Assembly: GCA_029858565.1 (NCBI GenBank)
Contig: JAOUEV010000014.1
Location: 1 to 60,283 of the forward strand
Reading direction: 5' to 3'
Source of the DNA: Nitrospirota bacterium
GTDB lineage: Bacteria; Nitrospirota; UBA9217
DNA: 60,283 bases
Shown here in pieces: positions 5,490 through 37,954 of the stretch. A program made the translations under genes and the position numbers. Below the pieces are notes generated by a model. It saw nothing but the letters and a program-made list of their open reading frames with translations, ran no database searches and was not told the DNA's origin. Positions within the stretch are counted from its first letter, which is position 1. Each line of letters opens with the position of its first letter.

Positions 5490-5532
5490 TAGGAAGACCT
5501 CGGAAAAAGAACTTCGGGCGCGATGACAGCAG

Positions 5533-6255: not shown

Positions 6256-6530
6256 GGTTGAATCCCTCACGTTTGCCGCAGTTAGAACAATGAATATAGC
6301 TGTCCGGCCATTGCAACCAACTGCACCGGTATGCATCTTCTGCAGTTCCCGGATTCATTAGTGGATAGTATAGCATAGGGGACGGCGGGAAATTTGTTTT
6401 TGCCGATTTTCAGACGGGAGTCATCCGCTAAATCCGTCATGTCATATAGAGAAGCGCGTTCATCATATCCACCAGTAGAAACACGAGGCTACGGCCAGCC
6501 GCCGCAGCGCGCTGCGTAGTGGAATTACTC

Positions 6531-6560
6531 TTGACATCGGACCGCTCTTTATTGTAGATT
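6531..6560 (+). promoter_or_regulatory. Putative sigma70 promoter of the Ehr operon
   Basis: TTGACA (6531-6536), 18-nt spacer, TAGATT (6555-6560). Confidence 0.5.
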
Positions 6561-6646
6561 TTTCTTGCTCATGCCGGATATGGATTGACCGGATGCCCGC
6601 ACAGGTCGCCGGTCGTCGAACTTTGAAAATTGATGGCTCTTGATCA

Positions 6647-6683
6647 GCCCGTTGATCTTCTCCGGGCCTTTTTCGCGTTTTTT
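6647..6683 (+). terminator. Terminator-like hairpin in the 5' leader of the Ehr operon (possible attenuator)
   Basis: GCCCG...CGGGC stem followed by CTTTTTCGCGTTTTTT, just upstream of ATG 6690. Confidence 0.4.
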
Positions 6684-6689
6684 GAAAAC

Positions 6690-8681
6690 ATGGTCGTTCT
6701 GAATACATTTATCGCGGGTTCCGCATGCATCCTGTTCGGTGCAATCGCTTCCCTGACCCTTCTCTCGAAAGCGCGAAACTACAGCTATCTTTTTTCTTCG
6801 GTCGGTTCACTCCTTTTTCTCGCCGCAGGCGGTTATCTTCTCTATGCACCCGCATTCGCAGGCGCAGCAATTCCCGTAACCTCGAACTTCAGTTTCGGAT
6901 TTTCCTTTGATGCGCTCGCCGGTTTTTTCGTCGTTCTTATCTCGATTGTATCCCTTTTCCTGTCCTTTTACTCCGTTGGACTGACCCGCGGCATCAGGCA
7001 CGGCGGTTACCTGTCATTTTTCTACCATCTTCTGCTCCTAAGCATGTATGGCGTCGTCCTTTCCTCCAATATCGTCACCTTTCTGGTGTGCTGGGAGACA
7101 ATGGCAGTTGCATCCTATTTCCTTATCGTATTCGACAGGAACGCAGAGGCGGCAAAGGCAGGACTCTTTACGGTCGTGATGACCCATATCGGCACGGTCT
7201 TTATCATCGCGCTCTTCCTGGTGCTTGCCCGATTCACGGGAAGCATGGAATTCTCGGCGATGCGAAGCGCTGCCGCGTCCATCCCTTCGGGTGCCAGGAA
7301 CCTGATCTTCATCTTCGCGCTGATCGGTTTTGGCACCAAGGCAGGCATCATTCCGCTCCATACGTGGATCCCGCGCGCCTATCCCGTGGCTCCTTCGAAC
7401 GTCACTCCGCTCATGTCCGGAGTCATGATCAAGACCGCCGTGTACGGTTTCTTGCGCATATGTTTGGACGTGCTCGGACCGGGGCCGGAATGGTGGGGGA
7501 TCCTGGTCATAGCGGTCGGCGCCGCATCCGCTGTATTGGGGATCCTCTATGCGGTCATGGAGAGCGACCTCAAGGTCTTTTTGGCCTACTCCAGCGTCGA
7601 GAACGTGGGCATCATCCTCATGGGAATCGGCGCATCCATGACGTTCCGAAACAGCGCCATGCACCCGCTGGCAAGCTTTGCCCTTGCTGCTGCGCTGTTC
7701 CATGCGTTGAATCACGCACTGTTCAAGAGCCTGTTGTTCCAGGGGGCCGGTTCCGTCGTCCATGCGGCGGGTACACGGAACATGGAACAGCTGGGCGGAT
7801 TGCTCAAGAACATGCCCTGGACAGGCGCGCTGTTCCTTGCGGGCACCCTGGCCATTACGGCGCTCCCCCCCCTGAACGGATTCGTGAGCGAATGGCTCAC
7901 CTATCAGGCGCTGCTGCTCGGGTTCAAATCCTCTTCGGTCGTGGTCAAGATCGTTTCACCGCTGGGAGGGGCTGCGCTGGCGCTCACCGGCGCGATCGTT
8001 GCCGCCGGTTTTGTCAAGACGTTCGCGACGACCTTTCTCGGCATGCCGAGGAGCGAACACGCGATCGACGCACGGGAGTCGTCGCCATGGATGATCGCCA
8101 GCATGTCGCTGCTCGCGTTCCTGTGCCTGATCTTCGGAGTATTTCCCGGAATTCCTCTCATGCTGGTCTCACCGGCTGTCTTTTCCATAACCGGATCGTC
8201 CCTCGACCTGGACCTGCACGGCAGCATGGTGACGCCTCAAGCGACAGCTTCGCTGTCGACGACAGCGCTGGCATTGAGTTTGGTGCTGATAGCACTGGCA
8301 GCGATCCTGTTCGTGAGGCTGGCGGGAGGACGCAGAAGAACGGTCATTGCCGATTCCTGGGACTGCGGCATTCCGGCGCTTAACTCGCACATGCAGTACA
8401 CTGCGGCGGCCTTCACCAAGCCGCTCAGGATCATCTATAAGCGTATCTATCTTCCCAACCGAGAGCTGAAGGTTTCCTACATAGTTAAACCTTTTTTTGT
8501 GCGTTCTATCACCTACGGCGGCGAGATCACACCGTTCTTTGAGCGATATGTGTATGAGCCTGTCATGCGCGGAATGCACACTGCGGCGACAAAGATCAAA
8601 CTGCTCCAGTCAGGAAGCCTGCAGCTGTATCTGGGATACATACTGATCACACTGATCGCGCTGCTGATCTTCGGGACCTAG
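6690..8681 (+). CDS. hyfB: Ehr/hydrogenase-4 membrane subunit B (NuoL/MrpA-like antiporter subunit), module 1
   Basis: Multi-TM; FLVCWE, GTKAGIIPLH, LAYSSVEN, NHALFKSLLF, PPLNGFVSEW, WDCG, LQSGSLQLY. Confidence 0.9.
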   Translation: MVVLNTFIAGSACILFGAIASLTLLSKARNYSYLFSSVGSLLFLAAGGYLLYAPAFAGAAIPVTSNFSFGFSFDALAGFFVVLISIVSLFLSFYSVGLTRGIRHGGYLSFFYHLLLLSMYGVVLSSNIVTFLVCWETMAVASYFLIVFDRNAEAAKAGLFTVVMTHIGTVFIIALFLVLARFTGSMEFSAMRSAAASIPSGARNLIFIFALIGFGTKAGIIPLHTWIPRAYPVAPSNVTPLMSGVMIKTAVYGFLRICLDVLGPGPEWWGILVIAVGAASAVLGILYAVMESDLKVFLAYSSVENVGIILMGIGASMTFRNSAMHPLASFALAAALFHALNHALFKSLLFQGAGSVVHAAGTRNMEQLGGLLKNMPWTGALFLAGTLAITALPPLNGFVSEWLTYQALLLGFKSSSVVVKIVSPLGGAALALTGAIVAAGFVKTFATTFLGMPRSEHAIDARESSPWMIASMSLLAFLCLIFGVFPGIPLMLVSPAVFSITGSSLDLDLHGSMVTPQATASLSTTALALSLVLIALAAILFVRLAGGRRRTVIADSWDCGIPALNSHMQYTAAAFTKPLRIIYKRIYLPNRELKVSYIVKPFFVRSITYGGEITPFFERYVYEPVMRGMHTAATKIKLLQSGSLQLYLGYILITLIALLIFGT

Positions 8682-8706
8682 GGAACGACAAAACACCGAC
8701 AACGCC

Positions 8707-9624
8707 ATGGAATATTTGCAGTTATTTATAATCATCTTGTTCTCTCCGCTGGTGAATGGAGTGATCAAGAAAGTGAAAGCGAACATGCAGGGCAGGACCG
8801 GGCCCGGCGTGCTGCAGCCCTATTATGACCTCTTACGCCTTCTGCGCAAGGACATGGTCATTTCACGCGTGACATCATGGATATTCTCGGTCACGCCCTA
8901 TGTCGTTTTCGCGTCCGTTACCGCCGCGGCGCTGTTCGTTCCCGTACTGACGACAAGGACCGCATTCGGCGTGAAAGGCGATGTCATCGCGCTGATCTAT
9001 GTGTTCGCGCTCGGCCGGTTCTTCCTGGCCCTTGCCGGACTTGACGCGGGCACAGCGTTCGGAGGCGAGGGGAGCAGCAGGGAAATGACCGTGGCGATCC
9101 TTGTGGAACCCATGATGATGCTCGCGCTGTTCACCGCGGCCATTACCGCGGGCTCGACGAACATCGCGAGCATATCCGGCGCACATCGAGCCTTGTCCTC
9201 GCCGTCGCACCTGCTGGCGCTGTCGGCGCTGGTGATCGCCATCATCGCAGAGACCGGACGGGTCCCGGTGGATAATCCCGACACCCATCTCGAGCTCACC
9301 ATGATCCATGAGGGCATGATCCTCGAATATTCCGGCAGGTACCTCGCGCTCATGGAGTGGGCACATTACATAAAGCAGATGATCCTGTTCACCGTGGTCG
9401 TGGACATCTTTGTTCCCGTGGGCATTGCGCAGACAGCAGGGTTCTCCGGCATGACGGTGCCTGCAGTGTCCTATGCGGTGAAAATGACCGTTCTGGCAGT
9501 TCTCATGGCAGCAGTTGAATCCACGCGCGCGAAGGTCCGATTCTTTCAGCTTCCTTCGATCCTGGGAGGGGCATTCGTGCTCGCGTTCCTCGCGCTGGTA
9601 ACCCATATCATGATGGGCAAATGA
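8707..9624 (+). CDS. hyfC: Ehr/hydrogenase-4 subunit C (NuoH/HycD-like), module 1
   Basis: QGRTGP..LQPYYDL, GSSRE, AETGRVPVDNPDTHLELTMIHEGMILEYSG. Confidence 0.9.
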   Translation: MEYLQLFIIILFSPLVNGVIKKVKANMQGRTGPGVLQPYYDLLRLLRKDMVISRVTSWIFSVTPYVVFASVTAAALFVPVLTTRTAFGVKGDVIALIYVFALGRFFLALAGLDAGTAFGGEGSSREMTVAILVEPMMMLALFTAAITAGSTNIASISGAHRALSSPSHLLALSALVIAIIAETGRVPVDNPDTHLELTMIHEGMILEYSGRYLALMEWAHYIKQMILFTVVVDIFVPVGIAQTAGFSGMTVPAVSYAVKMTVLAVLMAAVESTRAKVRFFQLPSILGGAFVLAFLALVTHIMMGK

Positions 9625-9652
9625 GCTGACGTACGCCAAGAGGTGCACTGTT

Positions 9653-10312
9653 TTGAAACACTGGCTTGAGACCTACTCCATAATCGATTTCATCTCTGTC
9701 GGGATCCTTTTGACCGCCGTCACGTTGAACGCATTCAAGAGCATCGAATCCTATGTCAAGGCCTATACGATCAACTCCTGGCTTCTGGCGGGATTGATCG
9801 CCGTGGTCGGGGTTCTGGTAAATGAATCCCATCTGTACATGGCCGCGGTGCTCACGGTCCTGACCAAGGGCGTTCTGATCCCGATCATCATCTGGCGCAT
9901 CATTCGCCGGATGCGCGTGGCCCATGAAGTGACGCCCTATATCAGCAATACACTGTCCCTGGCGATATCCGGCATCCTGGTAGCCGTTGTGTACGCTTCG
10001 CTCCAGGGAGGGATATTCGTGACGGGGTTCTCGCGCGACGCGCTCCAGATCTCCATCGCCGTGATCCTGATCAGCCTGTTCATCATGATCACACGAAAGA
10101 AGGCATTGACCATGGTCATGGGGCTGCTGTTCATGGAGAACGGACTGTTCCTTGCCGGGTTTTCCCTGACCTTCGGCATGCCGACGATCATCGAACTGGG
10201 CGTGCTCTTCGATATGCTGATGGGCGTGATCATCCTGGGGATCTTTGCAGTGCAGATCAAGCGGGTCTTCGCGTCCGCTGATCTAGACAAGCTCACGGTG
10301 TTAAAGGGGTAG
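9653..10312 (+). CDS. hyfE: Ehr/hydrogenase-4 subunit E, module 1
   Basis: Multi-TM; TKGVLIP, MENGLFL, GMPTIIELGVLFD; TTG start after GAGG. Confidence 0.88.
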   Translation: MKHWLETYSIIDFISVGILLTAVTLNAFKSIESYVKAYTINSWLLAGLIAVVGVLVNESHLYMAAVLTVLTKGVLIPIIIWRIIRRMRVAHEVTPYISNTLSLAISGILVAVVYASLQGGIFVTGFSRDALQISIAVILISLFIMITRKKALTMVMGLLFMENGLFLAGFSLTFGMPTIIELGVLFDMLMGVIILGIFAVQIKRVFASADLDKLTVLKG

Positions 10313-10316
10313 AACA

Positions 10317-10344
10317 AGTGCGGAGCGCGGAGTGCGGAGTGCGA
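10317..10344 (+). repeat. Short heptamer tandem repeat (AGTGCGG x4, imperfect)
   Basis: AGTGCGG AGCGCGG AGTGCGG AGTGCGA between hyfE and hyfF of module 1. Confidence 0.75.
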
Positions 10345-10370
10345 AATAATAATAAATCGCGGAGAACGGC

Positions 10371-11852
10371 ATGTTAACCGTGCTTTTGATCCCGATAATC
10401 ACAGCCGTGCTGTGCTATCTCGTGAAAAGCCCGAGGTTCATCGGTTACGTCAGCCTCGCGGGGATGTCGGTGCTTGTCGTCGCGGCAGCGAGACTCATCG
10501 CAGCCTCTCTCGCGGCTCCGGTGTACGAGTTGCAGGAAGCGCTGTTCATGGACGCGTTCTCCGCCTACGTGATGGCGCTTATGCTGTTCTACAGTTTCGC
10601 GGCAGCGGTCTACTCGATCAGCTACCTTCAGCATGAGTTCGAGACGGGCTTGATCGATATCCGCGGCATGCGGCGGTACTACGGTCTGTTCCATCTCTTT
10701 GTCTTCACCATGCTGCTGGTGGTCGCGGCGAACAACCTGGCGCTCATGTGGATCGGCATGGAGGCCACGACGATCGTCTCGGCGCTCCTGATCGGCCTTG
10801 GTTTTCACAAACGGCCGCTCGCGGTCGAGGCTGCGTGGAAGTACATTGTTCTCTGCACCGTGGGCATCACCTTCGCGCTTCTCGGCACGTTCATCACCTA
10901 CTACGCGGCATCCTCGGTCGTCGGGCACGAGAGCGCGCTCAACTGGACAGTCCTGTCAGGGATCGCCGCGAAATTGAATCCCGGCACCATGAAACTTGCA
11001 TTCATTTTCATGCTGGTGGGCTACGGCACCAAGGCGGGCCTCGCGCCGGTACATAACTGGCTGCCTGACGCGCAGAGCCAGGCGCCGAGCCCCATAAGCG
11101 CGCTCCTGCCGGGCTGGACCGCGTTCTATGCGATCATGCGTTTCCTGGCTATCGTCAGCCCCTCGACCGGCGTCTCCTTTACCGGCAACCTGCTGGTTAT
11201 CTTCGGTCTCATTTCCATCGGCATCGCAGCGATATTCATCGTGGTTCAGGACAATTACAAACGGTTGCTCTCGTACAGCAGCGTCGAACATATGGGTATC
11301 ATGGCGCTGGGTGTGGGCATCGGCGGGCCCCTGGGTTTTTACGGATCGTTGCTGCACATGCTTGGCAATACCTTTGCCAAGCCGCTCATGTTCTTCACTT
11401 CAGGAAAGATCCAGGCACGGTTCGGGTCAACGAACATCGCCAACGTAACAGGCGTCTTCTCCTCCATGCCGCTCCTCGGGGCGATGACGTTCATCGGAGC
11501 CCTCGCGCTTGCCGGTTCGCCTCCTTTCAACATATTCATCAGTGAGTTCACGATATTGAAGGCTGCGGCTGACAAGGGCATGTGGCTTGTTCTTGGTATT
11601 TTTCTGTTCTTTGCCGCAGTTGTTTTCTACGGAGTGCTTTCCGGATTCGGCAAAATGCTTTTTGGCGATCCTGGCAGGGAAAGCGGTGCCGGATCGCTTG
11701 TGCGGCCCCGAATCCCGGTCACCGTAGGCACTGTTCTCGGCAACGGCATCATGATAGCTATGACTGCTTCGATCGTGGTCATGGGTTTTACCATACCGCA
11801 GTTCATCGACCGGACCATCAGGGCGTGCATAGCCGCCCTGGGAGCTAATTGA
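10371..11852 (+). CDS. hyfF: Ehr/hydrogenase-4 subunit F (NuoM/MrpD-like), module 1
   Basis: MEATT, EAAWKY, GYGTKAGLAPVHNWLPDA, YSSVEHMG, PPFNIFISEF. Confidence 0.88.
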   Translation: MLTVLLIPIITAVLCYLVKSPRFIGYVSLAGMSVLVVAAARLIAASLAAPVYELQEALFMDAFSAYVMALMLFYSFAAAVYSISYLQHEFETGLIDIRGMRRYYGLFHLFVFTMLLVVAANNLALMWIGMEATTIVSALLIGLGFHKRPLAVEAAWKYIVLCTVGITFALLGTFITYYAASSVVGHESALNWTVLSGIAAKLNPGTMKLAFIFMLVGYGTKAGLAPVHNWLPDAQSQAPSPISALLPGWTAFYAIMRFLAIVSPSTGVSFTGNLLVIFGLISIGIAAIFIVVQDNYKRLLSYSSVEHMGIMALGVGIGGPLGFYGSLLHMLGNTFAKPLMFFTSGKIQARFGSTNIANVTGVFSSMPLLGAMTFIGALALAGSPPFNIFISEFTILKAAADKGMWLVLGIFLFFAAVVFYGVLSGFGKMLFGDPGRESGAGSLVRPRIPVTVGTVLGNGIMIAMTASIVVMGFTIPQFIDRTIRACIAALGAN

Positions 11853-11853
11853 T

Positions 11854-13422
11854 ATGAATCCTGCGCTCAAAGAGTCCCGCTCACGGCGTGAATTCCGCAA
11901 CGAGGTGTATCTCGAATACGGAGCAGCGGACTTTCACGATGTCTGCTGCAGTCTGGTGAAGGACCACCGCGCGCTCCTCAGGCTCATGTTCGGCACTGAT
12001 GAGCGATTGCGTGACGGTTCCTTCCGGATCTACGCCGTTTTCTCCATTCCCGGGCAGGACCGGTTCCTGATCCCTGTTCTGCAACTGGGCGACAAGGAAT
12101 CATCCTTTCCCTCGATCACTTCGGAGGTTCCAGCGGCCCAATGGTATGAGCGGGAGATCAGCGACATGTTCGGGTTATCTCCTGAAGGCCATCCGGACAC
12201 GCGCCGTCTGGTGTTCCATGAGGCCTTTCCCGCTGGATCGCACCCCCTGCGCAAGGACTGGAGCATAACGGATGAGGAAAAGGCCGTATGGGGCGAGGGG
12301 AGAAAGATCAATGTGCCTCATCCCTTCATGGAAGTGGCAGGCGAGGGCATTGTCCAGATCCCGGTGGGTCCGGTGCATGCCGGGGTCATCGAGCCGGGTC
12401 ATTTCCGGTTCAGCGCGATCGGTGAAACGATCTTCTTCCTCGAACCGAGACTGTTCTACACCCATAAAGGCACGGAAAAGCATTTCGAAAGCTTCGGGTT
12501 TTCCGACGGGGTGCGGCTTGCGGAACGGGTTTCCGGCACTGATTCCTTTTCCCACGGCGTCGCCTATTGCATGGCCGTCGAGCGGATGATGGGGATCGAG
12601 ATCACGGAAAAGGCCGCGGCGGTCAGAACGCTCGGCATGGAACTCGAGCGATTGTATAATCATATCGGTGATATAGGTTTCCTCTGCGCAGGAACGGCGC
12701 TTGCCGTGGGATACGCCAAGGGAGCAGTCATCCGGGAGGAACTCCAGTGCTTGAACGAACGTCTCACCGGCAGCCGGTATCTGCGCGGGGTCAATGCGGT
12801 CGGCGGCGTGACCACGGATATGCTGGAACACGCCGACGACCTGCTGCGGACACTGGACTCGGTAACGGTCGAGTATAAAAGCATGATGAAGCTCCTGCTT
12901 TCTTCGGTCTCCCATGTGGAACGTCTCGAGAATACCGGGAAGCTGTCCCGGGACATCGCGGCCCGTCTCGGCGTGACCGGCGTGGCCGCGCGGGCCTCCG
13001 GCCTTGCAGATGATGTCAGGAAATCTCATCCGCATCTGCTGTACGATCGGATGATCTTCGAAGCACACACCCTGGAAAAAGGCGATGTGCTCGCGCGGAT
13101 GCTGATCAGGGGGGAGGAGGCCGAGTGCTCCATCTCCATGGTCCACGAGCTCCTGGAAAGCTCGTACAGGGGAGGTCTGACCGTTGCGGTGAAGCGTCCG
13201 GAAGCCTATGCTTCAGCGCTGGGATATGTGGAATCTCCCCGGGGATCGCTGTTCTACTGGGTCATGTCAGACAAAGAAGGAAAGCCGTTCCGCGTGAAAT
13301 TGCGGACGCCGTCCTATTGCAACTGGCCTGCAGTCCCTTTTGCCGTGCACGGCAATATCGTTCCCGATTTTCCGCTGTGCAATAAAAGCTTTAATCTTTC
13401 CTATTCCGGCTGCGACCGGTGA
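11854..13422 (+). CDS. ehrL: Ehr large subunit (HycE/HyfG-like NuoC-NuoD fusion lacking NiFe ligands), module 1
   Basis: WYERE..HPLRKD (NuoC part); GPVHAGVIEPGHFRF, HKGTEK, ELERLYNH, ESPRG; L1 site ERVSGTD and C-terminal NLSYSGCDR lack the CxxC pairs. Confidence 0.88.
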   Translation: MNPALKESRSRREFRNEVYLEYGAADFHDVCCSLVKDHRALLRLMFGTDERLRDGSFRIYAVFSIPGQDRFLIPVLQLGDKESSFPSITSEVPAAQWYEREISDMFGLSPEGHPDTRRLVFHEAFPAGSHPLRKDWSITDEEKAVWGEGRKINVPHPFMEVAGEGIVQIPVGPVHAGVIEPGHFRFSAIGETIFFLEPRLFYTHKGTEKHFESFGFSDGVRLAERVSGTDSFSHGVAYCMAVERMMGIEITEKAAAVRTLGMELERLYNHIGDIGFLCAGTALAVGYAKGAVIREELQCLNERLTGSRYLRGVNAVGGVTTDMLEHADDLLRTLDSVTVEYKSMMKLLLSSVSHVERLENTGKLSRDIAARLGVTGVAARASGLADDVRKSHPHLLYDRMIFEAHTLEKGDVLARMLIRGEEAECSISMVHELLESSYRGGLTVAVKRPEAYASALGYVESPRGSLFYWVMSDKEGKPFRVKLRTPSYCNWPAVPFAVHGNIVPDFPLCNKSFNLSYSGCDR

Positions 13423-13443
13423 AACATTGAGAGAGAGCGACCC

Positions 13444-13968
13444 ATGCTGAAAGAGATATTGAAGAACCTCATAACCAGAAAGCGAACAATAACCTTCCCA
13501 ACGGGATTCCCGATAGAACCCGGGCAGACTGTTAAGCTTGTTGACATTCAAGGGAAACTTGATACAATCTTCAAAAGATCGCTGCGGATCAGGATGGTCG
13601 ACGCGGGTTCCTGCAACGCCTGTGAATGGGAATGTCAGGCCCTCATGAATCCGTTCTATGATCTTCAAAGGCTCGGCATCGACTTTGTGGCATCGCCGAG
13701 ACATGCCGACGTACTGCTGGTGTCCGGTCCGGTCTCCCGTCAGATGGAACTCGCTCTCAAAAAGACCTATTTCGCAACTCCGGAGCCAAGGCGGGTCGTG
13801 GCTTGCGGCGATTGCGCGGTGAACGGCGGCATCTACCGCGGCAGTTACGCGGTGACCGACGGCGTGGCGAACGTCATTCCCGTTGACGCGATCATTCCGG
13901 GCTGCCCGCCGACGCCTTCGGCGATCATGCTGGGCATCGCCCAGCTCATGAACAAAGACGTGAAGTAA
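13444..13968 (+). CDS. ehrS: Ehr small subunit (HycG/HyfI/NuoB-like, 4Fe-4S), module 1
   Basis: GSCNACE, SPRHAD, GDCA, IPGCPP. Confidence 0.9.
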   Translation: MLKEILKNLITRKRTITFPTGFPIEPGQTVKLVDIQGKLDTIFKRSLRIRMVDAGSCNACEWECQALMNPFYDLQRLGIDFVASPRHADVLLVSGPVSRQMELALKKTYFATPEPRRVVACGDCAVNGGIYRGSYAVTDGVANVIPVDAIIPGCPPTPSAIMLGIAQLMNKDVK

Positions 13969-14053
13969 GCATGCAGTGATCAGAGAGCTTGACCTTCACC
14001 AATAGCGCGCCATTTCCGTCCGACGACGCGGGTAAGGGCTGTGAGGTGGAAAC

Positions 14054-16099
14054 TTGGTTATCGATCCTGTCCGTATCATGGCGGCGTCCTTCGCCGCGCT
14101 CGTCCTCCTGCTTGTACTGACGATCTTTCTGCGTCGCAGCCAGCGCCTGCTGATAACGGCGGGGTTCTCCCTTGCCGGCCTCGCATCGTTCCTCGCGGCA
14201 GGCGCGGGATTCCTGACTGTTGCTCAGGGGATGACCTTCCGGATCGTCGTACCCCTCGGGCTGCCTGACCTGCCGTTCCATCTGCGACTCGATGTGCTCT
14301 CCGGCTATTTCTTGATGATCATCGGCCTCCTGGCGCTCTTTGTATCGATCTATTCCATCGGCTATGTGCGCGGTTTTCTCGGGGTGAGGCCGGTAACCAG
14401 CCTCGTGGTCTTCTCTACGTTCTTTCTCGCGGGGATGTTCCTTGTAGTTCTCGCTGACGACGCTTTGTTCTTTATGATCGCCTGGGAATTGATGGCCGGC
14501 GCTTCGTACTACCTGGTCATGTTCGAGGACGAGCGCCTGGAGAACAGAAGGGCGTCGTTCCTCTATCTGCTTGTGGCCCATGTCGGCGCCATCGCGATAC
14601 TCCTGTCCTTTGGTATCCTCGCGGGGCTTACGACGGGGTTTCAGGGATTCGAAGGATACACCTTCGACGCCATGCGCGAGGCGAAGCATCCCCAGGCGCT
14701 CGCAACAGCGGCCTTTCTCCTGGCATTTTTCGGGTTCTCTGCAAAGGCGGGCGTGATCCCGCTCCATATCTGGCTGCCCGAGGCCCATCCGGTCGCTCCG
14801 TCGAACGTATCGGCACTGATGAGCGGAGTGATGCTCAAGACGGCTATTTACGGGATGATGCGCGTCATCTTCGATCTGATCGGCGTGTTTCCCTGGTGGT
14901 GGGGCGCTCTGGTGCTGGTATTCGGGCTGATATCGGCGGTGCTCGGCGTTCTCTATGCGCTGCTGCAGCACGACCTCAAGAAGCTTCTTGCCTATTCGTC
15001 GGTGGAGAATATCGGGATCATCCTGATCAGCATGGGCCTGTCCATGATCTTCGCGTCGTTCGGTCTGACCGTGCTTTCCGCGCTGGCGATGATCGCGGCG
15101 CTCTACCACACCCTGAACCATGCAATGTTCAAGGGACTGCTGTTCATGGGCGCGGGCACGGTGCTTCATGCGACCCATGAGCGGTCCATGGAAAAGATGG
15201 GCGGACTCATCAAATTCATGCCCTGGACGAGCGCCCTGTTCCTCGTCGGCTGCCTCTCCATCGCGGCCCTGCCGCCTTTTAACGGATTTGTGTCCGAGTG
15301 GCTGACCTATCAGGCGTTCCTGCTGTCTCCGGCCCTGACCAACCCGCTGCTGAACCTGCTGGTGCCGCTGGGAGCGGCGCTTCTAGCGCTCACCAGCGCT
15401 CTTGCCGCGGCCCTGTTCGTGAAAGCCTACGGGGTGACTTTTCTCGGTCATCGGCGAAGCCGCCATCCTGCCGTGATCCATGAAGCGCCGTGGTCCATGC
15501 GCATCGCCATGTCGTTGGCGGCACTTGCCTGCCTCGCTCTTGGCATCTTCCCGACCTATCTTATCCACTGGATGGACCCGATAACGAAGTTCCTGGTAGG
15601 GGACACGATATCTTCTTCAGCTGCGGGATTCGGGTGGATGTGGCTGACCCCGATCGCCCATGATAGGGCATCCTATTCAGCTCCCGTGGTGTTCGTGGTC
15701 ATCCTTGCCGTGGTGGCCATCACCTATCTGCTGCTGCATTCACGTGCAGGGACGATACGTCGCGGCCCTCTCTGGGGATGCGGTTTTGAAGGCATCACCA
15801 GCCGTATGCAGTACACGGCAATGTCCTTTTCCATGCCTCTGCGCAGGATATTCGGCTTTCTGTTCAGTATCAAGGAAAAGGTCCATCATCTGCCGCCTAC
15901 GACCCACAGCGCTTTTCCCGGCAGACTGCAGTATCATCTTCGCGTGCGGGACCGGGCGTGGATATGGGTCTATCAGCCGATCTCCGACGCCAGTTTCTGG
16001 ATATCCCGCAGGATCGGCCGGATGCAGCACGGACGGATCCAGGTGTACTTGATCTATTCGTTCGTCACGATCATCGTGCTGCTCATTTTTTCTCGATAG
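14054..16099 (+). CDS. hyfB: Ehr/hydrogenase-4 membrane subunit B, module 2
   Basis: AWELM, KAGVIPLHIWLPEAHP, LAYSSVEN, NHAMFK, PPFNGFVSEW, WGCG; TTG start after GAGGTGG. Confidence 0.9.
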   Translation: MVIDPVRIMAASFAALVLLLVLTIFLRRSQRLLITAGFSLAGLASFLAAGAGFLTVAQGMTFRIVVPLGLPDLPFHLRLDVLSGYFLMIIGLLALFVSIYSIGYVRGFLGVRPVTSLVVFSTFFLAGMFLVVLADDALFFMIAWELMAGASYYLVMFEDERLENRRASFLYLLVAHVGAIAILLSFGILAGLTTGFQGFEGYTFDAMREAKHPQALATAAFLLAFFGFSAKAGVIPLHIWLPEAHPVAPSNVSALMSGVMLKTAIYGMMRVIFDLIGVFPWWWGALVLVFGLISAVLGVLYALLQHDLKKLLAYSSVENIGIILISMGLSMIFASFGLTVLSALAMIAALYHTLNHAMFKGLLFMGAGTVLHATHERSMEKMGGLIKFMPWTSALFLVGCLSIAALPPFNGFVSEWLTYQAFLLSPALTNPLLNLLVPLGAALLALTSALAAALFVKAYGVTFLGHRRSRHPAVIHEAPWSMRIAMSLAALACLALGIFPTYLIHWMDPITKFLVGDTISSSAAGFGWMWLTPIAHDRASYSAPVVFVVILAVVAITYLLLHSRAGTIRRGPLWGCGFEGITSRMQYTAMSFSMPLRRIFGFLFSIKEKVHHLPPTTHSAFPGRLQYHLRVRDRAWIWVYQPISDASFWISRRIGRMQHGRIQVYLIYSFVTIIVLLIFSR

Positions 16100-16122
16100 A
16101 AATACGCAACAGGAGAAAGAAC

Positions 16123-17070
16123 TTGACGATCCCTTCATCGCTTATAGAAACGACCCAGGTGGCGCTGCTGCTCGCGGCCGCACCGCTGTTCACGGGGTGG
16201 GTGAAGATGGTGAAGTGCTGGATGCAGGGCAGGACAGCGCCGAGCCTGCTCCAGCCCTTCCGCGATCTGGCGAAGCTGTTTTCAAAAGACGTGGTGCTGG
16301 CTGAGAATGCCTCCTGGATATTCCGTTTCACACCCTATCTCGTATTCGGCGTCTCGGTCCTGGCAGGGGCGATCATTCCCGTGCTTTCCACGGACCTGCT
16401 GCTGTCGGCAACCGCGGACGTTATCGTCCTGGTCTCGCTCTTTGCCATTGCGCGGTTCTTTACCGCCCTGGCGGGCATGGACATCGGGACCGCGTTCGGG
16501 GGGATGGGCTCAAGCCGTGAAATGACCATCGCGTCCTTGGCAGAACCGGGCATGCTGATGGCCGTGTTCGCGGTATCGCTCGTGGGAAAATCGACATCGC
16601 TCTCTCAGATGACAGCAGTTATTTCCCAGGGCGGACATGCGATGCTGCGGCCGTCGATGGTGTTCGCACTGCTGGCCTTCATTCTCATTGCCCTGGCGGA
16701 AACAGGAAGGATTCCCGTGGACAATCCAGCGACCCATCTGGAGCTTACTATGATCCATGAGGCCATGATCCTGGAATATTCCGGAAGGCATCTCGCGTTG
16801 ATCGAATGGGCGGGGATGATGAAGCTCTATCTCTTCACGGTCCTGGGCATAGCGGCTTTCTTTCCCTGGGGTATCAGCCTGAATAACGACCTTCCGGCCA
16901 TTGCAGGAGCGCTGGTTTTTCTCTTCCTCAAGCTGGGGTTCGTGGGCATGGCTCTTGTGCTGATCGAGACCGGGCTGGCAAAAATGCGGATATTCAGGAT
17001 CACGGAATTCCTGGGAAGCGCGTTCCTGTTCGCCACGCTCGGCATGATGTCGTTCTTCATGCTGGAATAA
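16123..17070 (+). CDS. hyfC: Ehr/hydrogenase-4 subunit C, module 2
   Basis: QGRTAP..QPFRDL, GSSRE, AETGRIPVDNPATHLELTMIHE; TTG 16123 after AGGAG. Confidence 0.88.
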   Translation: MTIPSSLIETTQVALLLAAAPLFTGWVKMVKCWMQGRTAPSLLQPFRDLAKLFSKDVVLAENASWIFRFTPYLVFGVSVLAGAIIPVLSTDLLLSATADVIVLVSLFAIARFFTALAGMDIGTAFGGMGSSREMTIASLAEPGMLMAVFAVSLVGKSTSLSQMTAVISQGGHAMLRPSMVFALLAFILIALAETGRIPVDNPATHLELTMIHEAMILEYSGRHLALIEWAGMMKLYLFTVLGIAAFFPWGISLNNDLPAIAGALVFLFLKLGFVGMALVLIETGLAKMRIFRITEFLGSAFLFATLGMMSFFMLE

Positions 17071-17137
17071 GCGTGACAGCAAGCTGCTTTGTCCCTTGCC
17101 GGACAGGGAATAGCGAGATCATGAGAAAGGTGCAGAT

Positions 17138-17803
17138 ATGAATCCGACTGCTGCTGCGCAACTGAACAGTCTTCTGGCTGCTCTGATCCTTCTTACTGCC
17201 TTTGCGCTGGTGGTGCAAAGACGGATGAACGCGCTGCTCCATATTTTCGCGTGGCAGGGGTTCCTTCTCGCGGTCAGCACGGCCATAGTCGGTTTCGTGG
17301 GCGGGGCCCATCATTTATACATATCCTCGTTCCTGACGCTGGGCATCAAGGTGATCCTTCTGCCCTATATCCTGCATCTGCTGATCCATAAACTGAAGAT
17401 CCGCAAAGAGGTCGACTCGGTGATCAATGTTCCGACGACGATGATGATCGGCATCATCCTGGTCATCTATTCCTATCATTTGACCGCGCCGATCAGGGAA
17501 TTATCGACGCTGGTGACCCGATCGACAATTGCCGTGGCGCTTGCCACGTTCATGCTCGGGTTCCTCATGATGATCACCCGGAAGCACGCGGTCGCCCAGA
17601 TCATCGGTTTCCTTGCCATGGAGAACGGACTTCTTTTCGCCGCAACGAGCGCGACCTACGGCATGCCGCTGGTGGTCGAGCTCGGCGTCGCGCTGGACCT
17701 GCTGATCGCGGCATTCATCTTCGGCATGTTCTTTTTCCATATTTCGACCACTTTCGACAGCCTGGATGTGGACCAGATGGCCAGGTTAAAGGAAGAAGAT
17801 TGA
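17138..17803 (+). CDS. hyfE: Ehr/hydrogenase-4 subunit E, module 2
   Basis: IKVILLP, MENGL, GMPLVVELGVALD. Confidence 0.88.
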   Translation: MNPTAAAQLNSLLAALILLTAFALVVQRRMNALLHIFAWQGFLLAVSTAIVGFVGGAHHLYISSFLTLGIKVILLPYILHLLIHKLKIRKEVDSVINVPTTMMIGIILVIYSYHLTAPIRELSTLVTRSTIAVALATFMLGFLMMITRKHAVAQIIGFLAMENGLLFAATSATYGMPLVVELGVALDLLIAAFIFGMFFFHISTTFDSLDVDQMARLKEED

Positions 17804-17848
17804 TGCGTTGCTTCATCGACAACCCGTTCTCCGGGCATAGAGGTTGAT

Positions 17849-19297
17849 ATGTATCTGCTGATCCTGTTGGTCATCCCACTTGCCGCATCGCTGATCCTGG
17901 CGATCATCGGCGACCGGAAATACGCGCCCGAAGTGAATATCGCCTGCTCGGCGGTCTCCTGCGGGGCGAGTATCGTTCTTGGCCTGCAGGTGTACGAGCA
18001 GGGACCGTTCCTGGCCTGGGACAATTTCTTTTTTGTGGACGCGTTCAGCATCTATCTGTCGGTGCTCACGGCGTTCGTTTCCATGACCACGGCTATCTTC
18101 AGCAGGCGCTATATGCGCCGGGAGCGTGAACACGGGACCATCGGCCACCGCAGAATGCGATTCTATCACGCCATGTATCAGCTCTTTATCTTCGCAATGC
18201 TGCTCTGCCTACTGACCAATAACGTGGGGATCCTCTGGATCGCCATGGAACTTGCCACATTGTCCACGGTCCTGCTCGTATCGCTCTATCGCACGCCCAC
18301 CTCGATCGAGGCTGCCTGGAAGTATTTCATTCTCTGCGGCGTCGGCATATCGCTGGCGCTGTTCGGAACGGTCCTTCTTTACTTTGCCGCGGAAAAGGTC
18401 CTGGGGCCCGGAGGCGCGGCACTGCACTGGACGAACCTGGCGAAGGTCAGCAGCCAGCTGGAGCCGACCATCCTGTCCCTTGCCTTTGTGTTCCTTGTGG
18501 TGGGGTACGGCACGAAAGTGGGGCTGGTCCCCATGCATAACTGGCTTCCCGACGCGCACAGCGAAGGCCCGACGCCCATATCTGCCGTGCTTTCCGGTCT
18601 TTTGCTGAACATCGCTCTCTACGCGCTGGTGCGCTGCAAGGTGCTGGTGGATGGATCCACAGGAACCCACCATTCCGGGAACATCATGATGGGATTCGGG
18701 ATACTCTCGATAATGGTCGCATCCTTCTCGATCCTTCGCCAGAAGGACATCAAACGGATGTTCGCCTATTCCTCGATCGAACATATGGGCATCGCTACGT
18801 TTGCTTTCGGCCTGGGAGGGCCGGTCGCGACATTCGGAGCATTGATGCATATGCTGATGCACAGTCTCACTAAATCAGCGATATTCTTTACCGTGGGCCA
18901 TGCGTCCCAGATGCACCGGACCCAGGAAATGGACAAGATACGGGGCCTTATCCGCGGAAACCCGCTTGTCGGATGGGGACTCGCCCTTGGATGCATGGCG
19001 ATCGTGGGCATGCCTCCCTTCGGTGTATTTACCAGCGAGTTCCTGATCCTGACCGCAACGATCAAGGACGCGCCGCTCATGGCGCCGTTCCTGCTGCTCG
19101 GCCTCACCGTGACGTTCGCGGCACTGTTCAGGAAAGTGCAGCATATGGTCGCGGGAGAGGCGCCTGCATATCAGATAAAACTGAAGGCGGCCCACGTCCC
19201 CGTGGTCCTTCACATGGCGCTTGTTCTCGTCCTGGGATTATATCTGCCCAAATTCCTGTCCGGGTGGTTCCAGGCGGCAGTGGGAGTTCTGAAATAA
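17849..19297 (+). CDS. hyfF: Ehr/hydrogenase-4 subunit F, module 2
   Basis: EAAWKY, GYGTKVGLVPMHNWLPDAHSE, YSSIEHMG, HSLTK, PPFGVFTSEF. Confidence 0.9.
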   Translation: MYLLILLVIPLAASLILAIIGDRKYAPEVNIACSAVSCGASIVLGLQVYEQGPFLAWDNFFFVDAFSIYLSVLTAFVSMTTAIFSRRYMRREREHGTIGHRRMRFYHAMYQLFIFAMLLCLLTNNVGILWIAMELATLSTVLLVSLYRTPTSIEAAWKYFILCGVGISLALFGTVLLYFAAEKVLGPGGAALHWTNLAKVSSQLEPTILSLAFVFLVVGYGTKVGLVPMHNWLPDAHSEGPTPISAVLSGLLLNIALYALVRCKVLVDGSTGTHHSGNIMMGFGILSIMVASFSILRQKDIKRMFAYSSIEHMGIATFAFGLGGPVATFGALMHMLMHSLTKSAIFFTVGHASQMHRTQEMDKIRGLIRGNPLVGWGLALGCMAIVGMPPFGVFTSEFLILTATIKDAPLMAPFLLLGLTVTFAALFRKVQHMVAGEAPAYQIKLKAAHVPVVLHMALVLVLGLYLPKFLSGWFQAAVGVLK

Positions 19298-19337
19298 TGT
19301 ACCGGATATGAAACTTGAAATGAACGGCTGCTGAATC

Positions 19338-20915
19338 ATGGATAAGATCAGACTTAAAAACCTTGTCATGAACGCACTGGGAAGCGACGCCTCCGAGGAT
19401 GACAGCCTTGCGCCGTCAACGGTCATGTCACTTGTCGTTCCCCGGAGCCGTTTCGCTGAGACCGCGCGCATCCTCAAGAAGGAATACGCTCTGCTTGCAG
19501 CGGAATGGGCGTCTGACGAGACCGGGCTGGGCAGGGGATACGGCGTATACGCCTGCTTTCGTCGGGAGAAAGAGTATCTCGTAGTGAAGATGGAAGTGCC
19601 CACGGACGATCCTGTGTTTCCCAGTCTGGTGAAGAAGTATCCCGCGGCATTTCGGTTCGAACGGCAGATCCAGAGCCTTATGGGACTTATGCCAGCCGGC
19701 AATCCGGACAATCGACCCTGGATCAAGCATGAAGATTGGCCGGCAGATGCCTGGCCCCTCAGAAAGACCTTTGACGGAGCGAAAAAGCTGCCCCGTGTAG
19801 CAGGGGAGTATCGCTGGATACGGGCAGAGGGCGAGGGGATCTACGAGATCCCGGTGGGGCCGGTGCATGCGGGCATTATCGAACCGGGGCATTTTCGATT
19901 CCAGGCCATGGGCGAGGATATCATCAATCTGGAAGCGCGGTTGGGCTATGTCCATAAGGGGATCGAGAAGCGCTTCGAGACCCTCTCCTGGGTTGATGCT
20001 TCCCGTCTCGCGGCGCGCGTGTCCGGTGATACGACGGTCGCACATTCGCTGGGCTACGCGCGGGCCGTGGAAGCTCTCGCGGGCTGTATACCCCCGGACC
20101 GGGCGCATTGGCTCCGTGCGCTTTTCCTGGAACGGGAGCGCATCGCGAACCATCTCGGTGATCTGGGCGCGATATGCAATGATGTTGCATTTGCGTTCCT
20201 CTTCTATCAATTCCATAGACTCAAGGAAATCGTGCTTCGCACCAACATGAATCTTTTTGGCCATCGTTTCCTGATGGACCGAATTGTTCCGGGCGGGGTG
20301 ATCGCGGATATCGATCCCGATAAAGCGCAGACCATAATGGAGGAACTGGCGCTGATCGAAAAGGATTTTGAACGCCTTGTGGCGGTCTATGACGATAATT
20401 CATCGCTCGAGGACCGGGTGCGGGATACCGGTGTCCTGCGCTCCGAGGTTGCGCGGGACCTTTGTGTTGTCGGCATTGTTGCGAGGGCCAGCGGATTGAA
20501 CCTCGATTGCCGCATCCATCATCCTTTTCCGCCTTATGACAGGATAGAAGTGAATGTACCGGTGCTTGTTTCCGGCGACGCTCATGCGCGCGCCTGGGTC
20601 AGGGTGGAAGAGGTCCGGGAATCGATCAGGATCATCCGTGAGCTGCTCAGGTCCATGCCTACAGGAAGACTGACAACGCCGATGGACCGTATCATTGCGA
20701 ACAGATCGGGTTTCTCCGCCGTGGAAGGATGGAGAGGCGAGATCATTTACTGGGTCCAGTCCGGCCAGAACGGCGGCATCAACCGCTGCATGGTGCGTGA
20801 TCCCTCAAGCGTTAATTGGCTGGGATTGGAGCAATGCATCCACGGGAATATCGTTCCTGATTTCCCGCTGTGCAACAAGAGCTTTAATCAGTCCTACTCA
20901 GGAAACGATTTATGA
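19338..20915 (+). CDS. ehrL: Ehr large subunit (no NiFe ligands), module 2
   Basis: GPVHAGIIEPGHFRF, HKGIEK, ARVSGDTTVAH, EGWRG, C-terminal PDFPLCNKSFNQSYSGNDL. Confidence 0.88.
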   Translation: MDKIRLKNLVMNALGSDASEDDSLAPSTVMSLVVPRSRFAETARILKKEYALLAAEWASDETGLGRGYGVYACFRREKEYLVVKMEVPTDDPVFPSLVKKYPAAFRFERQIQSLMGLMPAGNPDNRPWIKHEDWPADAWPLRKTFDGAKKLPRVAGEYRWIRAEGEGIYEIPVGPVHAGIIEPGHFRFQAMGEDIINLEARLGYVHKGIEKRFETLSWVDASRLAARVSGDTTVAHSLGYARAVEALAGCIPPDRAHWLRALFLERERIANHLGDLGAICNDVAFAFLFYQFHRLKEIVLRTNMNLFGHRFLMDRIVPGGVIADIDPDKAQTIMEELALIEKDFERLVAVYDDNSSLEDRVRDTGVLRSEVARDLCVVGIVARASGLNLDCRIHHPFPPYDRIEVNVPVLVSGDAHARAWVRVEEVRESIRIIRELLRSMPTGRLTTPMDRIIANRSGFSAVEGWRGEIIYWVQSGQNGGINRCMVRDPSSVNWLGLEQCIHGNIVPDFPLCNKSFNQSYSGNDL

Positions 20916-21421
20916 TCAGGATACTTAAACAAATATTCAGAACCGGCATCAAAACTGAAACAATTCCGCCGGTCCTGGACCCGGAGATCGCAAAGATCGG
21001 CGTCAAGCTCGAAGCGGTCATCAAAAAACGCTTCCGGGGCAGCCTGGCGATCCGCCAGATCGATGCGGGATCCTGCAATGGCTGTGAACTTGAGATACAT
21101 GCCGTGAACAATGTGTTTTACAATTGTGAACGATTCGGCATCCATTTTACCGCATCGCCTCGGTTCGCTGACCTCCTGCTGGTGACCGGTCCGGTCTCCC
21201 GGAACATGGAAATAGCTCTCCGGAGGACCTACGAAGCTACCCCGACTCCGAAGATCGTTGTCGCGGTGGGGGATTGCGGCTGCAATGGCGGCATTTTCGG
21301 CGAGTCTTATGCCACGGTCGGAGCTGTTGACAGCGTTATTCCCGTCGATGCCCGCATTCCAGGCTGTCCGCCGACACCAATAGCGCTTCTGCAGGGTATT
21401 CTCAAGGCCTTGGCCGATTAA
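20912..21421 (+). CDS. ehrS: Ehr small subunit (NuoB-like), module 2
   Basis: GSCNGCELE, SPRFAD, GDCG, IPGCPP; ATGA overlap with the large subunit. Confidence 0.9.
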   Translation: MIRILKQIFRTGIKTETIPPVLDPEIAKIGVKLEAVIKKRFRGSLAIRQIDAGSCNGCELEIHAVNNVFYNCERFGIHFTASPRFADLLLVTGPVSRNMEIALRRTYEATPTPKIVVAVGDCGCNGGIFGESYATVGAVDSVIPVDARIPGCPPTPIALLQGILKALAD

Positions 21422-21480
21422 TGGCTCACAGTGAATGCGGCACCTGATCGTCTGATCACCCCGGTCTTTTCATTTTCCTT

Positions 21481-21509
21481 TTGCTCCTCAGCAGACCTCG
21501 ATTTATAAT
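21481..21509 (+). promoter_or_regulatory. Putative sigma70 promoter
   Basis: TTGCTC, 17-nt spacer, TATAAT upstream of the NlpC/P60 gene. Confidence 0.55.
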
Positions 21510-21562
21510 GGGACCGTGCCTCAGAAATACAGCTCCGCTTGCCAACGAGGAGTAGCCGATCC

Positions 21563-23017
21563 ATGATCCGTTCTTCTTTCACGCTCATCCGGGCAGCTGT
21601 TGTTCTTTCCTTGACAGCGCTGTTTGTCATCGGCACCGCTTTTTCAGCGCCTGTTGTTGATCCTGCTCTGGAAAAGGACATCCTCGATCTATTGGACCGG
21701 GAATGCCTGAGCCTGAACAAGGAAAAGCTCTACGCACTTCTTGCGCAGGATGCCGCGGTATCGTCTTCCTCCACCGATGCCGCTGTCCTTCTTAAGATCA
21801 TGGAGGGCGTGATCAAAAGGACGGATTTCGACGGCATCGCCGAGGGAAAAACCGTTGAGATCATCGGTCTGGTCTACGGAGCCCATAAAAAAGGCGCGCC
21901 CCTTGAGCAGCTTGACGAGATCTTTGATGTTGCGTACGTGAACACCGTCTCGATCGACCAGCTCTATGCAGCTGCGCAGGCTCTCAAAGAGTTCGGCATG
22001 TCCGAGGTTCCCCAGGATATCTATGAGGAGTTCGTGTATCATTCGATCGAGAACGGATGGGACCCCCGGGTGACGCCGGTCCTTGCGCGCGGGCTCATCT
22101 ACGGCGTTGATCGGGGATTGTCGCCCGACAAAGTCGCCTTGATAATCATGCTCGATGTCAAGAACGGCGAATTGAACAGCAAGAAGCCTGACCAGTTGGT
22201 CATGGATGCAATCAAGCTCGTGCGGGAAAAGGAGCCAGCCAGGTGGAGGTCTCCGGATCAGGGCGAGCGTGACAGGGCTGCAAGGATGGACAAAGAGCGC
22301 CTTCTGGAAAAGAAAAAAGAGGAGATCGATAACCAGCTGCAGCAGAAGGAGCGTGCCTTCACGGCCGCCACGACAAAGCTGAAAGAACTGCGCGAATATC
22401 CGGAGCAGCAGACCATTGACCAGAAGAGGATCGACCAGGATCTGGAAGCATTGATCCGGAAACTCCAGGATGAGATCAGCCAGGCCCAGAACAGACAGCG
22501 CGATATAGTGGCGGAACTGGAAACAACGAAGAAAGATGTTGAACAGCGCCAGGCTGTCAAGGACCGTGAAAAGAAGGAAAAGCGGGAGAAGGAACTGGCC
22601 AGAAAGCAGCAGGACATCCAGTCCAGGGGAAAACAGGGACGCCTGAACAAGACAGCGCTCAAAACGGAAGTCGATAAGTACCTGGGCACGCCCTATCGAT
22701 TCGGAGGAGATTCGAGGAACGGCATAGATTGCTCCGCTTTCACCCGGCGTGTCTACCGCGGCCAGGGTGTGGAGCTTCCACGGACCAGCAGGGAGCAGGC
22801 GCGGGTCGGCAATGGCGTTACGTACAGCAATGTCCGCACCGGGGACCTTATCTTCTTTGATACGTCCATAAACGGGAACATTTCCCATGTAGGCGTGCAC
22901 CTGGGGAACAATGTCTTTGCCCATGCCAGCAGCAGTAAGGGCGTGACCAGGAGTTCCCTCAAGGAAAAGTACTATGTTAAGCGCTTTGTAAAAGGCGGAA
23001 GGATCTTTGCTGATTAA
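21563..23017 (+). CDS. Secreted NlpC/P60 (C40) peptidoglycan endopeptidase with N-terminal helical region and coiled coil
   Basis: Signal peptide; charged coiled-coil stretch; YLGTPYRFGG..GIDCSAF..SHVG..FAHAS catalytic Cys-His-His. Confidence 0.88.
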   Translation: MIRSSFTLIRAAVVLSLTALFVIGTAFSAPVVDPALEKDILDLLDRECLSLNKEKLYALLAQDAAVSSSSTDAAVLLKIMEGVIKRTDFDGIAEGKTVEIIGLVYGAHKKGAPLEQLDEIFDVAYVNTVSIDQLYAAAQALKEFGMSEVPQDIYEEFVYHSIENGWDPRVTPVLARGLIYGVDRGLSPDKVALIIMLDVKNGELNSKKPDQLVMDAIKLVREKEPARWRSPDQGERDRAARMDKERLLEKKKEEIDNQLQQKERAFTAATTKLKELREYPEQQTIDQKRIDQDLEALIRKLQDEISQAQNRQRDIVAELETTKKDVEQRQAVKDREKKEKREKELARKQQDIQSRGKQGRLNKTALKTEVDKYLGTPYRFGGDSRNGIDCSAFTRRVYRGQGVELPRTSREQARVGNGVTYSNVRTGDLIFFDTSINGNISHVGVHLGNNVFAHASSSKGVTRSSLKEKYYVKRFVKGGRIFAD

Positions 23018-37047: not shown

Positions 37048-37096
37048 ACACGTACTTCTTACCATTCCTACGTATAAAATGTCAAAGATCTGAAAG

Positions 37097-37140
37097 TGAC
37101 ATAATTTGTCATATAAAGTGACGACATTAGTAACTTGTCG
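37097..37140. promoter_or_regulatory. Inverted repeats, probable enhancer (PilR-type bEBP) sites
   Basis: TGACA-taatt-TGTCA (37097-37111) and CGACA-N9-TGTCG (37122-37140) upstream of a sigma54 promoter. Confidence 0.55.
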
Positions 37141-37183
37141 ATAATAAATGCTACAATCCTGTTGAAATTACAGCTTATTATAT

Positions 37184-37923: not shown

Positions 37924-37954
37924 ATCCAGCTAAATTTCCTCGCTTCTTTCATCA

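Follow-up and report, generated by a model that had tools for sequence, protein, structure and literature searches.

Two phylogenetically distinct Ehr-type modules lie head to tail in a gene cluster of a Nitrospirota family

The stretch of 60,283 nucleotides analysed here (hereafter the window, at its full length) derives from a Nitrospirota bacterium (GenBank assembly GCA_029858565.1, contig JAOUEV010000014.1) and contains, between positions 6690 and 21421, twelve open reading frames (ORFs) on the + strand that make up two consecutive six-gene runs of the Ehr type in the identical order B-C-E-F-large-small. Ehr complexes occur widely and are related both to complex I and to membrane hydrogenases, with no known substrate or role. 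Passages of several papers relate them to the energy-converting hydrogenases (Ech) and deal with the Ehr of Geobacter sulfurreducens (PMC7894505, PMC3569383, PMC4378227, PMC6349859), and sections of PMC12342949, PMC10284858, PMC6349859 and PMC7894505 call their function unknown. Set 1 spans 6690-13968 and set 2 spans 14054-21421, both on the + strand and head to tail. In both sets, Pfam and NCBIfam assign the B and F products to Proton_antipo_M (PF00361), C to NADHdh (PF00146) and E to a HyfE-like family; the large subunit is a fusion of Complex1_30kDa (PF00329) and Complex1_49kDa (PF00346), and the small subunit belongs to Oxidored_q6 (PF01058). Two complete sets in the same order, 85 bp apart, had been described in an earlier note made from the letters alone, and the ORFs and family assignments bear this description out. 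The features of the cluster are:

6690..8681, + strand: B1, HyfB/NuoL-like antiporter-like subunit of set 1 (NF005086, 635 bits, below the cut-off of 667)
8707..9624, + strand: C1, HycD/NuoH-like subunit of set 1 (7z0s_D, E-value 9e-54)
9653..10312, + strand: E1, HyfE-like small membrane subunit of set 1 (NF008556, E-value 8.5e-26, under the cut-off)
10371..11852, + strand: F1, HyfF/NuoN-like antiporter-like subunit of set 1 (418 bits, below the cut-off of 543)
11854..13422, + strand: L1, fused NuoC-NuoD/HycE-like large subunit of set 1 (7z0s_E, E-value 1.5e-79; none of the four NiFe Cys)
13444..13968, + strand: S1, NuoB/HycG-like small subunit of set 1 (HycG, E-value 3e-33; four cluster Cys)
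13969..14053, + strand: S1-B2 spacer of 85 bp, with no terminator-like site or stable fold
14054..16099, + strand: B2, HyfB/NuoL-like antiporter-like subunit of set 2 (NF005086, 810 bits, above 667; HycC, E-value 8e-65)
16123..17070, + strand: C2, HycD/NuoH-like subunit of set 2 (begins with TTG, preceded by a GGAG-like site)
17138..17803, + strand: E2, HyfE-like subunit of set 2 (NCBIfam)
17849..19297, + strand: F2, HyfF-like antiporter-like subunit of set 2 (NF005045, 769 bits, above 543)
19338..20915, + strand: L2, fused NuoC-NuoD/HycE-like large subunit of set 2 (none of the four NiFe Cys)
20912..21421, + strand: S2, NuoB/HycG-like small subunit of set 2 (four Cys; a 4-base overlap with the end of L2)

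The curated NCBIfam cut-offs for the hydrogenase-4 B and F subunits are passed by set 2 and missed by set 1. Amino-acid identity between paralogues (BLASTP) is 42% for B, 46% for C, 33% for E, 39% for F, 39% for the large and 51% for the small subunit, with E-values from 1e-32 to 1e-131, and at the DNA level the sets can be aligned only in short patches (66-85%). Such identities are far beyond chance and are not those of a recent repeat. Gaps within the sets range from -4 to 67 bp, as against the 85 bp between them. No HycB/HycF/NuoI ferredoxin-like subunit, FdhF or hydrogenase maturation gene was found in the cluster, from which NuoI, NuoEFG, NuoA and NuoJ are likewise absent; ordinary nuo clusters sit on other contigs of the genome (3.9 Mb in 144 contigs). 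A TGA inside a NuoD-like match on contig C142 proved to be merely the nuoC stop.

Both large subunits lack the ligands of a NiFe site, which upholds a further statement of the earlier note. In the alignment to HycE (7z0s_E) and in the motif columns, RVCGICGFAH and DPCYSCTDR of HycE are replaced by RVSGTDSFSH and NLSYSGCDR in L1 and by RVSGDTTVAH and NQSYSGNDL in L2. The four Cys positions are occupied by Ser and Asp (N-terminal) and by Ser and Gly (C-terminal) in L1, and by Ser, Thr, Ser and Gly in L2, and both the N-terminal RxCGxCxxxH and the C-terminal DPCxxCxxR/H motifs are missing from L1 and L2. The small subunit S1 aligns with HycG over CxxC, GxC and GCPP with all four [4Fe-4S] Cys present, and S2 has the same motifs. 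The part of PMC9474812 that deals with HycE names Glu193 as the Glu of the beta1-beta2 loop and Arg478 and Asp529 as canopy residues, the latter termed strictly conserved. Equivalents of Glu193 and Arg478 are retained in L1 and L2, both sets retain Asn-His at the places of Ser283/His284, and Asn takes the place of Asp529 in both. The complex I quinone site, of which we take His38 and Tyr87 of Nqo4 to be the relevant numbering, corresponds in L1 to Ile179 and Gly228. The former NiFe pocket keeps the loop Glu and the canopy Arg, with Asn for the canopy Asp and without the quinone-site His/Tyr of complex I.

Residues associated with ion translocation are also in place. A Glu in transmembrane helix (TMH) 5, a Lys in TMH7, a His/Lys in TMH11 and a Glu in TMH12 are invariant across B1, B2, F1 and F2, the roles of these antiporter-like residues being taken from the relevant part of PMC9474812; a TMH8 Lys occurs in B1 and B2 only, and the place of HycC Leu208 is a Lys in B2. 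Aligned to 7z0s_D, C1 retains the equivalents of HycD R108, E130, E138, E189, E203, E206 and Y102, and C2, read via its paralogue, retains the same E-channel equivalents except for a Ser at Y102.

Large-subunit sequences for phylogenetic analysis were drawn from a profile search of the whole library (13746 matches at E-values up to 0.001), of which the top 150 representatives were length-filtered and combined with the sequences of the loci. Among 135 such rows, 104 have none of the NiFe Cys and 21 have all four. In a quick IQ-TREE tree of 62 rows, a 24-row set (96) contains the L1 clade (SH-aLRT 100) along with all ten four-Cys rows, placing set 1 on the side of the true hydrogenases; the L2 clade belongs to another set of 12 rows (99), and the Ehr of Nitrospira forms a third clade. 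The approximately unbiased (AU) test rejects L1 and L2 as one clade (delta lnL 92.6, p 0.00175); the question posed by the earlier note, whether the sets are sister paralogues or belong to separate clades, is thus answered for the large subunit in favour of the latter. Both sets group with Cys-less representatives in the trees, and the relatives in the set-2 clade carry names from Thermodesulfovibrio, Burkholderia and Falsiroseomonas. The four-Cys representative nearest to L1 by identity (48%) was placed in Planctomycetota. A four-Cys Planctomycetota sequence, P0122, appeared as sister of set 1 in FastTree only and this placement was not reproduced by IQ-TREE. Separate losses of the NiFe ligands by set 1 and by set 2 were found to be unsupported: one change of Cys state suffices on the 62-row tree, and independent losses are therefore not claimed.

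Judged from these sequences, the pair is a juxtaposition of two different Ehr lineages and not a local duplication. The repeated gene order might suggest a recent tandem duplication or an assembly artefact, an explanation that we regard as refuted by the low identity of the paralogues, by the AU test against sisterhood and by the independent recovery of the junction: the join between S1 and B2 recurs in many independent metagenome-assembled genomes (MAGs) and is bridged by a 187-base contig (13915-14101) from another study's run. The claims that the paralogues differ throughout and that the cluster is neither a recent duplication nor an assembly repeat were therefore well founded.

Source names of close homologues mark the genome as a Thermodesulfovibrionales-like MAG of an uncultured Nitrospirota. 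The distribution of the two types was surveyed in 64 genomes of the family, including the window's own, with counts made by hand from match tables and with thresholds of at least 64% identity for the L2 type and at least 69% identity to L1 for the L1 type. An L2-type match was present in 53 of the 64 genomes and an L1-type match in 27. Both types lie on the same contig and strand in 15 of these 27, the L1 type 7.3-8.6 kb upstream (14.3 kb in G088, which has a 6.4-kb insertion between E2 and F2), on different contigs in nine, and three have the L1 type only; in one of them, G255, a B gene of the set-2 type is cut off by the end of the named contig. Among 28 named contigs matched with L1, 11 carry set 1 followed by set 2, nine carry set 1 alone, with 1.7-9.4 kb of downstream DNA free of set 2, and eight are too short or fragmentary. 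Within the family, set 1 was seen only with set 2 downstream where the contig permitted (11 of 11 named loci), and in all five family loci retrieved as set-2-only the 6-9 kb upstream are free of set 1. In other Nitrospirota families, twelve loci (L1 identity 55-67%) have set 1 alone. The arrangement of set 1 followed by set 2 is a trait of the window's Nitrospirota family and not a peculiarity of one genome.

None of five two-copy genomes checked outside the family combines the two types. A metagenome scan with a profile of diverse Ehr large subunits, limited to the best 80 of at least 597 matches and leaning toward set-2-like sequences, returned no locus with two large or two small subunit genes among the 80; the complete set of six genes is present in 33, of which 18 have at least 1.5 kb free on both sides. 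These results agree with the expectation that Ehr occurs mainly in single copy. We found no paper describing tandem Ehr pairs, although supplementary material (Fig. S12 of PMC12342949 and the notes of PMC6349859) may hold copy numbers.

Some loci met in these searches deserve mention in their own right. A variant order, S-B-C-E-F-L, occurs in four of the 80 metagenome Ehr loci (L116, L118, L128 and L144). A lone L1-type fragment (residues 185-521, 72%) lies on a Thermodesulfovibrionales MAG contig (L031:9986-11014), no further Ehr gene being detected in the 10 kb that flank it on each side, and may be a remnant or reflect an error-rich assembly. A complete set 1 (L1 73%) on a contig that ends right after S1 (L020, CAZGQO010000027.1) is filed in a bin named 'uncultured Ignavibacteriaceae', a placement that could result from a binning error or from transfer.

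In genus g8 we encountered a third Ehr-type module, likewise Cys-less, that shares 42-45% identity with both sets and in which a two-cluster ferredoxin-like domain is fused to the N-terminus of the small subunit. It was detected in two of 401 genomes searched in the phylum, directly upstream of set 2 in G024 (L148:7173-14628) and divergent from set 1-set 2 in G240 (L147:1407-10495). Together with the conserved adjacency and order of the two sets, the different partner of set 2 in G024, the clustering of three modules in G240 and the lack of a NuoI/HycF-like input subunit in either set would suit an obligate pair or hybrid supercomplex, one particle or redox loop in which neither module works alone in this lineage. 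We consider this improbable, as each set encodes all six subunits and both types are found alone in many genomes. A related and likewise unlikely proposal, to which we give slightly more credit, is that the set-2 operon serves as the point at which a second, non-orthologous Ehr module docks because the complexes form an obligate pair. The partner would be set 1 in at least 15 genomes, the ferredoxin-fused third set in G024 and both in G240, and a two-headed supercomplex might be formed. Alternatively, the modules might form a redox loop devoid of NuoI-type input, one running forward and the other in reverse, so that electrons would pass between two pools or ion gradients would be interconverted.

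Comparison with three tandem relatives gave a nonsynonymous divergence (dN) of 0.085-0.33 and a synonymous divergence (dS) above 1.2 for all 12 genes, with ratios of 0.03-0.22 that are rough because dS is saturated; set 1 evolves somewhat faster than set 2. These values indicate that all 12 genes are under purifying selection. By sequence criteria both sets appear functional, and the decaying module that the earlier note had named among its refuting cases was not encountered: the 12 frames of the window are open, dN is well below dS, and neither set has lost its cluster ligands or coupling residues. In G100 (L060:8421-9326), a natural deletion has left only a remnant of set 1, consisting of 47 C-terminal residues of L1 and a frameshifted S1, directly upstream of an intact set 2. 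That one module is a decaying duplicate could be argued from this remnant, from the stopped or split state of one large-subunit gene in six MAGs and from the somewhat faster evolution of set 1, but is very improbable in view of the open frames, the low dN of every gene and the preserved residues.

The arrangement of the junction bears on whether the sets are transcribed together. A terminator scan found no terminator-like site in 13969-14053, and the predicted fold of the spacer is no more stable than that of shuffled sequences (z -0.09), both in agreement with the earlier description of a gap with no evident terminator. Of 17 distinct loci, 14 have an S1-B2 gap of 54-89 bp and the other three one of 184-219 bp. 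A conserved block of about 33 nt (CTGAT ... AAGATGCA.GGAT) lies just 5' of the B2 ribosome-binding site in 13 loci (L011, L012, L013, L016, L017, L018, L019, L035, L060, L062, L064, L065 and L066) and is found neither in the spacer of the window nor in set-2-only loci; the window's spacer resembles those of three other tandem loci and of one set-2-only locus. A consensus fold of the spacer across the 13 loci gave no structure, and the block has no Rfam match. A loose regular expression for the block matched five junctions only in 1.85 Mb of retrieved loci, the pattern being too strict to count its members. Two sigma-70-like sites were noted:

6531..6560, + strand: candidate cluster promoter, TTGACA-18-TAGATT, 10/12, about 130 bp 5' of B1 (consensus match only)
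13541..13568, + strand: possible internal set-2 promoter, TTGACA-16-TACAAT, 11/12, inside S1, with TG before the second hexamer (consensus match only)

The consensus motif of sigma-54 had no match near the start of either set, and the window contains fewer matches to it than shuffled sequences do. Rfam gave no match in window positions 5400-22600 at E-values up to 1, and 14 related loci yielded none that reached the gathering score.

These observations can be read as two neighbouring but independent operons, set 2 having its own promoter and proximity reflecting a shared chromosomal history only. Most of the family has set 2 by itself, other families have set 1 by itself, G100 has lost set 1 with set 2 unharmed, and both the sigma-70-like match inside S1 and the block conserved at 13 junctions could serve set 2 separately. 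Nevertheless, the order and short gap are kept in 14 of the 17 distinct loci, the gap contains no terminator-like site, set 1 of the family is followed by set 2 wherever this is visible (including the 15 genomes with both on one contig) and in G024 the third Ehr type occupies the same place directly upstream of set 2. We therefore regard independent operons as possible but doubtful.

Our preferred interpretation, which we hold to be probable, is that the locus is a 12-gene cluster of two phylogenetically distinct, intact Ehr modules arranged head to tail, expressed together and yielding two complexes. The 12 genes would mostly lie on one transcript, driven by a promoter upstream of B1; co-transcription is suggested by the short gap with no terminator-like site and by the conserved order. 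Each module encodes a complete six-subunit complex, with a peripheral head made of the NiFe-less fused NuoCD/HycE-like subunit and a NuoB/HycG-like subunit carrying one [4Fe-4S] cluster, and a membrane arm made of the HycD/NuoH-like, the HyfE-like and the two antiporter-like subunits. The products would be two separate ion-translocating complexes that may differ in redox partner, ion or direction and would thus be complementary rather than redundant. As to origin, a set-1-type module may have been placed upstream of a resident set-2 operon, or the pair may be ancestral, with set 1 later lost.

Several points weigh against this interpretation. The tree comes from a quick search and its deep nodes are weak, and the clade submitted to the AU test was spelled out after the first tree, the sister-paralogue question having been posed beforehand. 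Besides the roughness of the dN/dS ratios, the large-subunit gene is split or stopped in some MAGs of few contigs, affecting the L2 type in G014, G240, G212 and G243 and the L1 type in G249 and G121; these six cases may reflect assembly error or decay. The remnant in G100 implies that set 1 is dispensable in some lineages. Independent transcription of set 2 is possible given the strong sigma-70-like match inside S1 and also because set 2, being found alone in relatives, must have had its own promoter; the 33-nt block, which the window lacks, could be a regulatory or promoter element. Finally, no linked redox partner was found in the flanks of 10 tandem, seven set-1-only and six set-2-only loci, and with no electron donor or acceptor gene linked, the proposed redox role is conjecture.

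The surroundings of the cluster are variable. In the window, both flanks are unrelated to Ehr: the upstream one encodes GlgB, MscS, an HrpB helicase and a PilZ response regulator on the other strand, and the downstream one an NlpC/P60 protein. The latter also follows S2 in the set-2-only loci L056, L057 and L058, which fits the gain or loss of set 1 in a stable neighbourhood. Neighbours of Ehr loci include GlnE, TauE, SulP, NhaA, MscS, an alpha/beta hydrolase and NlpC/P60. Ion or solute transporters are among them, with NhaA directly upstream in two tandem loci and TauE, SulP, MscS, a Na/H exchanger and a Na/Ca exchanger at other loci, and a cytochrome c7 gene lies 3' of S2 in two loci.

The spacer between E2 and F2 (45 bp in the window, 17804-17848) carries an insertion of 3.4-6.4 kb in operon orientation in three family genomes: L055:9970-13339 (G019), L065:5107-11571 (G088) and L059:6522-11600 (G230). 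In each, a DUF3368 ORF comes first and variable cargo (SDH-type protease, T5orf172/MUG113, FRG domain) after it; the spacer appears to be a hot spot, within the Ehr operon, at which a small mobile or defence cassette inserts. Elsewhere in the window, positions 36001-42000 have a G+C content of 0.49-0.51, against 0.54-0.62 in the remainder.

That two Ehr types (three in one genus) are kept in a tight locus, in fixed order and both under purifying selection, speaks against Ehr subtypes being interchangeable. Natural comparisons are offered by genomes that have both sets, only set 2, only set 1 or a set 1 remnant, and the set-2 type is open to genetics since it groups with the Ehr of culturable Burkholderia and Falsiroseomonas. 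The pair is a useful rather than a revolutionary clue: its carriers are uncultured, and the finding does not by itself reveal the function of Ehr.

Among known systems, the Ehr of G. sulfurreducens (GSU0739-0745), compared by description only, has the same kinds of subunits as both sets and a large subunit free of NiFe Cys; the present cluster differs from it in uniting two non-sister Ehr types. The Ehr of Nitrospira, from the same phylum, resembles both sets in its six genes and its lack of the Cys but belongs to the third clade, is 42-47% identical to L1 and stands single in two loci (L052 and L053). According to the portions of PMC12342949 and PMC10284858 that concern it, Ehr is present in about half of the Nitrospirales genomes analysed. 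The E. coli formate hydrogenlyase (FHL; Hyc, 7Z0S) was the best solved match for the four subunits searched (HycE for L1, HycC for B2, HycD for C1 and HycG for S1). Both sets share with Hyc and hydrogenase-4 (Hyf) a hyf-like gene order and the E-channel and antiporter residues; unlike these, they lack the NiFe ligands and, in the cluster, HycB/HycF, FdhF and maturation genes. They further depart from Hyc in the canopy, where Asp529 is replaced by Asn in both, and in TMH7, where a Lys stands in place of HycC Leu208. The four Cys ligands and the canopy Asp that characterize a functional group 4 [NiFe] hydrogenase are thus missing from both sets. Of the features of complex I, the NuoD quinone His/Tyr (Ile and Gly at the aligned places of L1) and NuoI/NuoEFG are missing too. 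Like complex I, however, both sets comprise homologues of NuoB, NuoCD, NuoH and the NuoL/M/N module, with the same charged coupling residues.

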